Virus record (IMG/VR): IMGVR_UViG_2896601577_000006 | Direction: 5' to 3' (one strand) | DNA from: a virus | Taxonomy: Duplodnaviria > Heunggongvirae > Uroviricota > Caudoviricetes | DNA: 12,660 nucleotides | In this document: positions 10,447 to 11,554 of the stretch, piece after piece | Layout of the letters: each line of letters opens with the position of its first letter | How positions within the stretch are numbered: the stretch's first letter is position 1 | Program-made: the position numbers and the translations under genes | The notes under the pieces: model-generated | Told to the model about the DNA's origin: nothing | Seen by the model: the letters and a program-made list of their open reading frames with translations, nothing else | Database searches by the model: none

Positions 10447-10508
10447 AGTGGCGAACCTCCTGATTGGATTAGGCTTCGCCCTATGTTGAAGTGGGTAATG
10501 ACTCCAAC

Positions 10509-10886
10509 TTATTGATAGTGTTTTATGTTCAGATAATGCCCGATGACTTTGTCATGCAGCTCCACCGATTTTGAGAACGACAGCGACTTCCGTCCCAGCC
10601 GTGCCAGGTGCTGCCTCAGATTCAGGTTATGCCGCTCAATTCGCTGCGTATATCGCTTGCTGATTACGTGCAGCTTTCCCTTCAGGCGGGATTCATACAG
10701 TGGCCAGCCATCCGTCATCCATATCACCACGTCAAAGGGTGACAGCAAGCTCATAAGACGCCCCTGCGTCGCCATAGTGCGTTCACCGAATACGTGCGCA
10801 ACAACCGTCTTCCGGAGCCTGTCATACGCGTAAAACAGCCAGCGCTGGCGCGATTTAGCCCCGACGTATCCCCACTGTTCGTCCAT
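10509..10886 (-). CDS. insB: IS1 insB reading frame (C-terminal part of the InsAB' transposase)
   Basis: Product ...[40 protein letters not shown]... is recognisable IS1 InsB. The frame continues upstream without a start codon to the TTAAAAAAC shift site at 10949-10957. Confidence 0.8.
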
Positions 10887-10930
10887 TTCCGCGCAGACGA
10901 TGACGTCACTGCCCGGCTGTATGCGCGAGG

Positions 10931-11206
10931 TTACCGACTGCGGCCTGAGTTTTTTAAGTGACGTAAAATCGTGTTGAGGCTAACGCCCATAATGCGTGCA
11001 GTTGCCCGGCATCCAACGCCATTCATGGCCATATCAATAATTTTCTGGTGCGTACCGGGTTGAGAAGCGGTGTAAGTGAACTGCAGTTGCCATGTTTTAC
11101 GGCAGTGAGAGCAGAGATAGCGCTGATGTCCGGCAGTGCTTTTGCCGTTACGCACCACCCCGTCAGTAGCTGAACAGGAGGGACAGCTGATAGAAACAGA
11201 AGCCAC
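10931..11206 (-). CDS. insA: IS1 InsA
   Basis: 91-aa [46 protein letters not shown]..., a zinc-finger/HTH protein. Confidence 0.9.
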
Positions 11207-11554
11207 TGGAGCACCTCAAAAACACCATCATACACTAAATCAGTAAGTTGGCAGCATCACCGCTCTTTGTTATTAAGCCCACTAACTACCTATGCTAAAA
11301 ATTATCCTTGTTCTGGGAAAAAGGGAGGTGTCTCTCACTGTACCTCCGATGGAAAATTTGTTTGCAATGATGGAACTATTAGTAAATTCAAAAAAATCTG
11401 TACTAAAAACTCACGATAACTTTTGCTTTTATATCTGCGTCTAAAATAAAAATGAGCCGCAGGTTAACCGCAAAAGTTACATGCTCACATAGCAAAAAGA
11501 ATAGCCAACTTCATTATGGCTTCAGTGAGATGTATGGTCGTAGGATTTCATACA

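Follow-up and report, generated by a model that had tools for sequence, protein, structure and literature searches.

We analysed a stretch of viral DNA of 12,660 nucleotides (IMG/VR virus record IMGVR_UViG_2896601577_000006; hereafter the window, meaning the whole stretch), which is 100% identical to Shigella boydii CP026867.1 and in which a prophage remnant is interrupted by a complete copy of the insertion sequence (IS) IS1. The IS1 occupies positions 10494..11261 (768 bp) and encodes its transposase on the minus strand. On its left lies a gpFI-like tail sheath gene (FI; 9274..10446, minus strand; Pfam Phage_sheath_1, Phage_sheath_1C and Gp18_domIII_N), the start codon of which, at 10446, is 47 bp from the element. 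On its right, the element is abutted by the 3' remnant of a ydcA-like small open reading frame (ORF) that has lost its first 34 nt (11262..11419, plus strand), followed by a P2/186-type tyrosine integrase pseudogene (int; 11608..12660, plus strand), the ATG of which is 346 bp away. An earlier reading of this DNA, made from its letters without database searches (the sequence-only reading), had given these same two distances, which are correct, and had proposed that the IS1 marks a deletion junction inside the prophage. Comparison with an intact relative revealed that the IS1 replaces about three quarters of a ~34-kb prophage, leaving ~9 kb.

On all structural criteria, the element belongs to the IS1 family. 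Its length and its terminal inverted repeats conform to those of the family (~768 bp, with imperfect repeats of ~23 bp starting GGTRATG): the right repeat (IRR), GGTAATGACTCCAACTTATTGAT, at 10494..10516, and the left repeat (IRL), GGTGATGCTGCCAACTTACTGAT, the reverse complement of 11239..11261, agree in 18 of their 23 positions. The insA gene (10931..11206) encodes 91 aa, and an A6C shift motif on the minus strand (TTAAAAAAC; 10949..10957) would join it through a -1 frameshift to the insB' frame, which extends to a stop at 10509. The predicted fusion product InsAB' is 232 aa long, contains the Pfam domains Zn_ribbon_InsA, HTH_Tnp_IS1 and DDE_Tnp_IS1, and covers the last of these profiles fully (1-131 of 131; E = 2.7e-77). 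The repeats, the motif and the Pfam matches thus bear out the completeness that the sequence-only reading had ascribed to the element. The window copy has its length, its 23-bp imperfect repeats, its A6C frameshift genes and its transposase domains in common with IS1A-type copies from E. coli and from Shigella; its identity to an E. coli IS1A is 98.7% (10 nt differences), and one nucleotide separates it from an IS1 found in a sister Shigella lineage. It differs from the IS1A-type copies by the lack of a 9-bp target duplication, by a private T at 10765 (Leu to Gln in InsB), which is absent from both other IS1 copies compared, and by a TAG in the upstream insB frame. The latter is created by a T at 10981, which also changes Gly to Ser in InsA relative to E. 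coli IS1A. This TAG sits upstream of the shift site, in the untranslated part of the insB frame and outside InsAB', and is harmless to InsAB'.

On simple insertion, members of the IS1 family duplicate 9 bp (rarely 8, 10 or 14 bp) of their target, and no such duplication surrounds the window copy. The two abutting 9-mers, GTTGAAGTG on the left (10485..10493, the last prophage bases before the deletion) and GCTCTTTGT on the right (11262..11270, the first prophage bases after it), are identical at 2 of 9 positions, in agreement with the sequence-only reading, which had reported them as different. In addition, the 30-bp flanks of the element share no word of 5 bp or more, and no abutting direct repeats of 7-14 bp were present around it, a range that includes the 8-10 bp duplication which that reading had named as the finding that would speak against a deletion. 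Two closely related copies served as controls: the IS1 of the sister Shigella lineage (1 nt different) is flanked by a perfect 9-bp duplication, GCCACCGTG, and so is the E. coli IS1A (10 nt different), by AAACTTATC. The missing duplication reflects the history of the insertion and not the element itself.

We mapped both arms of the window on the prophage locus of E. coli UPEC-245U/190328 (NZ_CP049845.1; locus L003), which was found by megablast of the flanks against complete E. coli genomes and holds an intact relative inserted between ybjL and rcdA. Both arms fall within this one prophage. Window positions 1..10493 correspond to L003 4065..14560 at 99.82% identity and positions 11262..12660 to L003 40028..41426 at 99.71%, while L003 14561..40027 (25,467 bp) has no counterpart in the window. 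The points on which the two IS1 flanks fall (14560 and 40028; the 9-mers being L003 14552..14560 and 40028..40036) are therefore non-adjacent, collinear and on the same strand, and an intact IS1 terminus adjoins each end of the deletion with single-base precision. On the left, the break falls between FI and the invertase gene, in their spacer; on the right (40027/40028), it falls 34 nt inside the ydcA-like ORF, which has 63 codons in the intact relative (L003 coding sequence 39994..40185) and stands between cI and int. The gene order of this relative is ogr, D, U, T, E, FII, FI, invertase, tail fibre, baseplate, lysis, head, portal/terminase and accessory genes, followed by a DinI-like gene, gpA, Dam, Fil, CII, a gene at the Apl position, CI, the 63-codon ORF and int. 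The deletion hence removed the tail-fibre invertase and the fibre, baseplate, lysis, head, replication and immunity genes.

The distance between FI and int is not a peculiarity of this single relative. In ten places found through a look-up of the FII protein, which returned predominantly intact E. coli prophages, the upstream side of FI/FII is occupied by a resolvase/invertase (9/10) or by tail-fibre genes (1/10), never by int, and int and FI are ~25 kb apart in Klebsiella phage 4LV2017. The sequence-only reading had held that the two flanking points are widely separated in P2 and had named a natural adjacency of int and FI as the other finding that would contradict it; a wide separation is confirmed in the intact relative, with both breakpoints now located to the base, and the adjacency was absent from all places sampled. 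An intact IS1, the lack of a duplication, separated collinear flanks and empty sites in relatives are together the signature of an IS-anchored deletion, and they support the interpretation given in that reading, namely an adjacent deletion or a recombination between two IS1 copies. The reading had used P2 as its frame, which holds at the level of the family; the prophage is 186-like rather than P2 itself.

Relatives with unoccupied sites that retain the intervening DNA exist for each end of the deletion. The left site is empty in E. coli relatives and in L037, a contig of a very close relative; the right site is empty in E. coli and in the loci L011-L019, which include the sister lineage. The sister lineage, 22-25 mismatches per 11 kb away from the window, still has cI and the small ORF. 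Within the window clade, by comparison, the substitution load is 0-4 per 11 kb.

The junction itself is widespread in public records. In every IS1-bridging record that was fetched, both junctions occur together (16 loci from at least 11 assemblies), and the junction is identical in CP026866, CP026762, CP026867, CP026872, CP026795, CP049281 and CP001063 as well as in several drafts. Short-read contigs that pass from unique sequence into an IS1 end also display each junction singly. Because both junctions recur in at least 11 assemblies, short-read contigs included, an assembly artefact is excluded for the FI-IS1-ydcA' junction. CP001063, which we take to be S. boydii CDC 3083-94, carries an additional IS4-family insertion at the start of the int pseudogene (L049 6345..7691) together with the same FI-IS1-ydcA' junction. 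Both junctions are absent from 5,426 complete E. coli genomes, a collection without Shigella, and none of these has an IS1 at either site. An exact search for the left junction among contigs representing one genome per species, where Shigella is probably not separate from E. coli, gave no match. Shigella was sampled through exact-protein look-ups, which makes the search for precursors non-exhaustive; an exact look-up of the FI protein returned only genomes already carrying the junction. We found no paper on this particular junction, including by full-text search for the accession numbers.

The integrase gene is dead. An in-frame TAG at 12229..12231 replaces a Trp of the E. coli relatives and falls just after the first catalytic Arg motif (TGAR*), leaving 207 aa; the truncated product of 11608..12231 is on record as a Shigella boydii protein. 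Three protein variants named Shigella boydii or S. dysenteriae share the 207-aa truncation, and one of these variants belongs to the sister lineage, 22-25 substitutions per 11 kb from the window clade, which keeps cI, an intact small ORF, gpA and more. Because the nonsense codon is common to lineages that retain more of the prophage, the int mutation predates the deletion, which occurred in a prophage already unable to excise.

Which route led from the dead prophage to the junction can be argued from the relatives. The usual reasons for missing duplications are adjacent deletion and inter-IS recombination (PMC11708052), and the choice between them, which the sequence-only reading had left to be made, still lies between these two. 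We favour, at about an even chance, an adjacent deletion driven by the IS1 transposase. In an ancestor of the S. boydii clade, a 186-like prophage had inserted between ybjL and rcdA; a nonsense mutation disabled its integrase, and IS activity then eroded it. An IS1 residing in the dead prophage would have undergone intramolecular replicative transposition into a site close by; the DNA in between would have left as a circle, and the IS1 would have stayed in place without a 9-bp duplication. We prefer this route because a single resident IS1 suffices for it, because no precursor with two IS1 copies was seen, and because the contig L037 resembles an earlier stage.

L037 and 12 similar contigs differ from the window genome by only 2 substitutions in 19 kb, yet their left site is empty. 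L037 includes prophage DNA beyond the left breakpoint, reaching the invertase and tail-fibre assembly genes, and ends in an IS1 IRR end located after L003 16149, 1,589 bp deeper into the prophage and in the orientation of the window IS1 (L037 20615..20639: GGTAATGACTCCAACTTACTGATAG). By single-nucleotide distance, L037 groups with a clade in which the int-bearing contigs all begin at the IS1-ydcA' junction, which makes a tfa-IS1-ydcA' intermediate plausible. This suggests that L037 resembles an earlier stage, with the IS1 boundary 1.6 kb further in, and that the deletion probably proceeded to its final size in more than one step.

Deletions of the same kind are known from other settings. In the long-term evolution experiment with E. 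coli, IS150 generates adjacent deletions that lack target duplications and grow stepwise (PMC11708052). The window junction shares with these the IS kept at the junction, the missing duplication and possibly the stepwise growth; it differs in that its precursor states are deduced from relatives and not followed in a time series, and in that recombination between two IS copies is also possible. IS1 is the most abundant IS in Shigella, where IS-mediated loss is common (PMC7373316). The decay described there likewise has IS1 as the dominant element, IS-made pseudogenes and accompanying deletions, and the host genes neighbouring the prophage in these genomes also have splits that resemble pseudogenes; the main text of that paper does not contain the word prophage, and no description of the window prophage was found in it. 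Deletions anchored on an IS are well known as a driver of genome reduction in Shigella, and the present event is one of them; its mechanism class and its outcome are textbook. IS1 itself is reportedly the subject of classical adjacent deletions in the gal region (Reif and Saedler, 1970s).

Several observations weigh against the preference for adjacent deletion. From the sequence alone, adjacent deletion and recombination between two IS1 copies give the same product. In the non-exhaustive Shigella sampling, no IS1 flanked by duplicated GTTGAAGTG or GCTCTTTGT turned up, and hence no precursor of the adjacent deletion having one IS1 and its duplication at an end point. The nearest IS1 end in the same orientation, that of L037, has a C at IS1 position 19 where the window has a T; a pure adjacent deletion starting from that copy would have kept the C, and the difference favours a second IS1 with recombination, gene conversion, or independent origins of the two copies. 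Finally, a bridged tfa-IS1-ydcA' intermediate was not found, a look-up of the 50-aa truncated ORF having returned only FI-IS1-ydcA' junctions. The IS1 of the sister lineage, located in the cII region in the same orientation, 1 nt different from the window copy and with an intact duplication, is a conceivable ancestor of the window IS1 that was dropped, as nothing specific supports it; this descent would need two successive deletions, and its lineage is ~10 times more distant than L037.

The foremost alternative, nearly as likely as the adjacent deletion although we place it somewhat short of an even chance, is a RecA-dependent recombination between two independently inserted IS1 copies in the same orientation. 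One copy would have stood at GTTGAAGTG, 47 bp upstream of FI, and the other at GCTCTTTGT in the ydcA-like ORF, or at intermediate positions in successive rounds; the crossover would remove the interval together with one IS1, so that the surviving copy keeps one half of each duplication. Such an event predicts the observed junctions exactly. Shigella offers very many IS1 copies for it (PMC7373316), and the sister lineages carry several IS1 and other IS inside the prophage. A primary insertion at the right site is plausible, since this stretch is 34% GC, against 50.5% for the prophage, and received three different IS independently within ~75 bp. The T/C difference at position 19 between the window and L037 is what a hybrid IS1 produced by a crossover would display; it may equally stem from mutation, gene conversion or an unrelated IS1 copy. 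Against recombination stands the fact that no genome was seen with an IS1 and its duplication at either site, and that two correctly oriented insertions are needed where the adjacent deletion needs one.

The clustering of IS at the right site is an observation in its own right. At L003 40027..40101 (window 11262..11335 plus the deleted bases to its left) lie the window IS1 junction, the IS5-like ISKpn13 of E. coli MB50, and, in the loci L010 and L013, an IS3-family element. The ydcA-like ORF between cI and int is a local IS hot spot.

A single event without a staggered cut, in which an IS1 was captured at a break or illegitimate joining, or was inserted into an IS-free junction and later lost its duplication, appears quite improbable, and its capture variant, in which the IS1 was taken up at a double-strand break during resolution of the 25.5-kb deletion, very improbable. 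Capture at breaks without duplication has been proposed for IS5 and IS481 (PMC11708052), the absence of a duplication is compatible with it, and IS-independent deletions do occur in a related prophage, as an FI-gpA fusion demonstrates (L012, described below). No IS-free version of the FI-ydcA' junction was found, however; IS1 is a classical former of adjacent deletions, the ordinary routes suffice, and both ends abut intact IS1 termini exactly, as transposase chemistry predicts. The last alternative, that no deletion took place and that a simple insertion lost its duplication by decay, that the FI-int order is natural or that a repeat was misassembled, is a possibility a priori only and has next to no probability: long-read assemblies do hold homopolymer indels, but 25,467 bp separate the flanks in an intact relative of 99.7-99.8% identity, FI and int are far apart in 10/10 sampled intact relatives and in 4LV2017, and the junctions recur in at least 11 independent assemblies, short-read contigs included. 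Two matching bases out of nine are too few for a decayed duplication given the 0-4 substitutions per 11 kb in the clade, and the mapping on L003, the sampling of FII neighbours and the recurring junctions lead us to reject a natural gene order and a misassembly.

The remnant cannot excise, because int is dead, and it cannot make particles, the head, lysis, baseplate, fibre, replication and immunity genes all being lost. Just beyond the left breakpoint, 77-94 nt upstream of the FI start, the intact relative has a TGT-N12-ACA dyad (L003 14590..14607). Sites of this type are bound by Ogr-class activators at P2 late promoters. The FI-D operon has probably lost its Ogr-dependent late promoter; counting against this proposal, it leans on a single motif of a kind frequent by chance, which makes it a weak one. 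The IS1 transposase gene is oriented like FI, and read-through from it into FI is conceivable. That the ogr-to-FI tail module, which is intact in most genomes of the clade, might be kept by selection and transcribed from the co-oriented IS1 is a weaker reading.

Beyond the sequence-only reading, the analysis identifies the type of prophage, gives the deletion its exact size and ends, shows that int was already dead, and hints at stepwise growth. It resolves to the base pair one IS1-anchored deletion by which a 34-kb prophage became a 9-kb remnant in an S. boydii clade. Junction states differ among close relatives, so that the locus could serve as a lineage marker, and it could be a small natural test case for distinguishing adjacent deletion from recombination between IS copies. 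Its importance beyond good annotation is little; the junction already stands in numerous public genome records, and neither its mechanism nor its biology is surprising.

Gene by gene, the remnant has P2-family synteny, FI-FII-E-T-U-D-ogr beside an attachment (att) site and a P2-type integrase at the other end. On the ogr side, the host gene ybjL (aspartate:alanine antiporter; 1381..3066, plus strand; 561-aa ORF, annotated in the collinear L003) is followed by the att core ATGGGTTTTTTGTTGTCTGAAATTTAT (3211..3237), an imperfect copy of which lies ~95 bp past the end of the window, between int and rcdA. In locus L036, the spacers between ybjL and ogr and between int and rcdA share a direct repeat that is exact over 14 bp and imperfect over ~27 bp, with the imperfect core consensus ATGGGTTTTTTGTTrTCTrAAATTTAT. 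The genes from ogr to FI are all on the minus strand: an ogr/Delta-type late activator gene (3302..3520; Pfam Ogr_Delta, E = 6.7e-22; 72 aa in L003 and L004), a gpD-like late control/tail gene (3611..4711; 366-aa ORF, Phage_GPD), a gpU-like tail gene (4708..5193; 161-aa ORF, Phage_P2_GpU), a gpT-like tape measure gene (5190..8265), a gpE-like tail assembly chaperone gene (8392..8694; 100-aa ORF, Phage_TAC_7) and a gpFII-like tail tube gene (8749..9264; 171-aa ORF, Phage_tube), FI completing the series. The gpT-like gene is split into ORFs 4943..7663 and 7714..8265 by single-C losses at 5202 and 7737, and is intact (1025 aa) in the near-identical L035, L037, L038 and L005. Several assemblies annotate the ydcA-like remnant as a 50-aa PF27300 YdcA product.

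The 186-type immunity/early region (CI, Apl, CII, Fil, Dam, gpA) was not found in the window; it lies inside the deletion, is present in L003 and is partly present in the sister lineages. Because of the gene order of the intact relative (CI, CII, Fil, Dam and DinI-like genes), the prophage is assigned to the 186-like P2 family (Peduoviridae), of which the window holds a remnant and not a functional member. Among deposited phages, the nearest is Klebsiella phage 4LV2017 (Peduoviridae, Elveevirus), at 94% identity for the tail genes and 97% for int. The UPEC-245U prophage has the same ybjL-rcdA site, the order ogr-D-U-T-E-FII-FI and a P2-type integrase, at 99.7-99.8% identity. Compared with 186-type phages, the remnant retains only ~9 of ~34 kb, has an int pseudogene and lacks the immunity, replication, head, lysis, baseplate and fibre genes. 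Cryptic P2-type remnants are also known in laboratory E. coli, namely the ogrK-yegZ remnant of K-12 and the defective P2-like prophage of E. coli B. Like the window, these are partial P2-family prophages with the ogr-proximal end, in contrast to which the site and extent differ here and an IS1 stands at the junction.

This prophage decays differently in each lineage. In the sister lineage, the IS1 with the duplication GCCACCGTG is nested in an IS3-family element that interrupts cII (L011, L014, L017 and L018, ~6450..8400; L019, ~2400..4350), and gpA is interrupted by an IS66-family element, at which L010 and L013 carry a rearrangement, with aroG and ybgS beside it. In a different strain (L012, 1921..4624), an internal deletion free of IS fuses a truncated FI (274 aa) to gpA in a prophage that is ~96% identical and has the same truncated Int, an independent, IS-less route of decay in a related prophage. 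E. coli MB50 carries the IS1A with the duplication AAACTTATC in the att core region between int and rcdA (L002 7793..8560), the prophage being otherwise largely intact.

The host genes to the right of int (ybjJ, ybjH, mdfA, dacC and yliI) vary in called length or are split across L004-L019, for example mdfA (410 aa versus 321+70) and dacC (400 versus 279+113), which fits Shigella pseudogenisation, assembly indels, or both. Single-C losses in C runs occur at window positions 1084, 5202 and 7737 relative to L037, L035, L038 and E. coli; the first frameshifts ybjM, and the other two split gene T into ORFs of 906 and 183 aa. They recur in CP026866. As they are missing from short-read assemblies and from CP026762, these losses may be homopolymer errors of long-read assembly and not real pseudogenisation.

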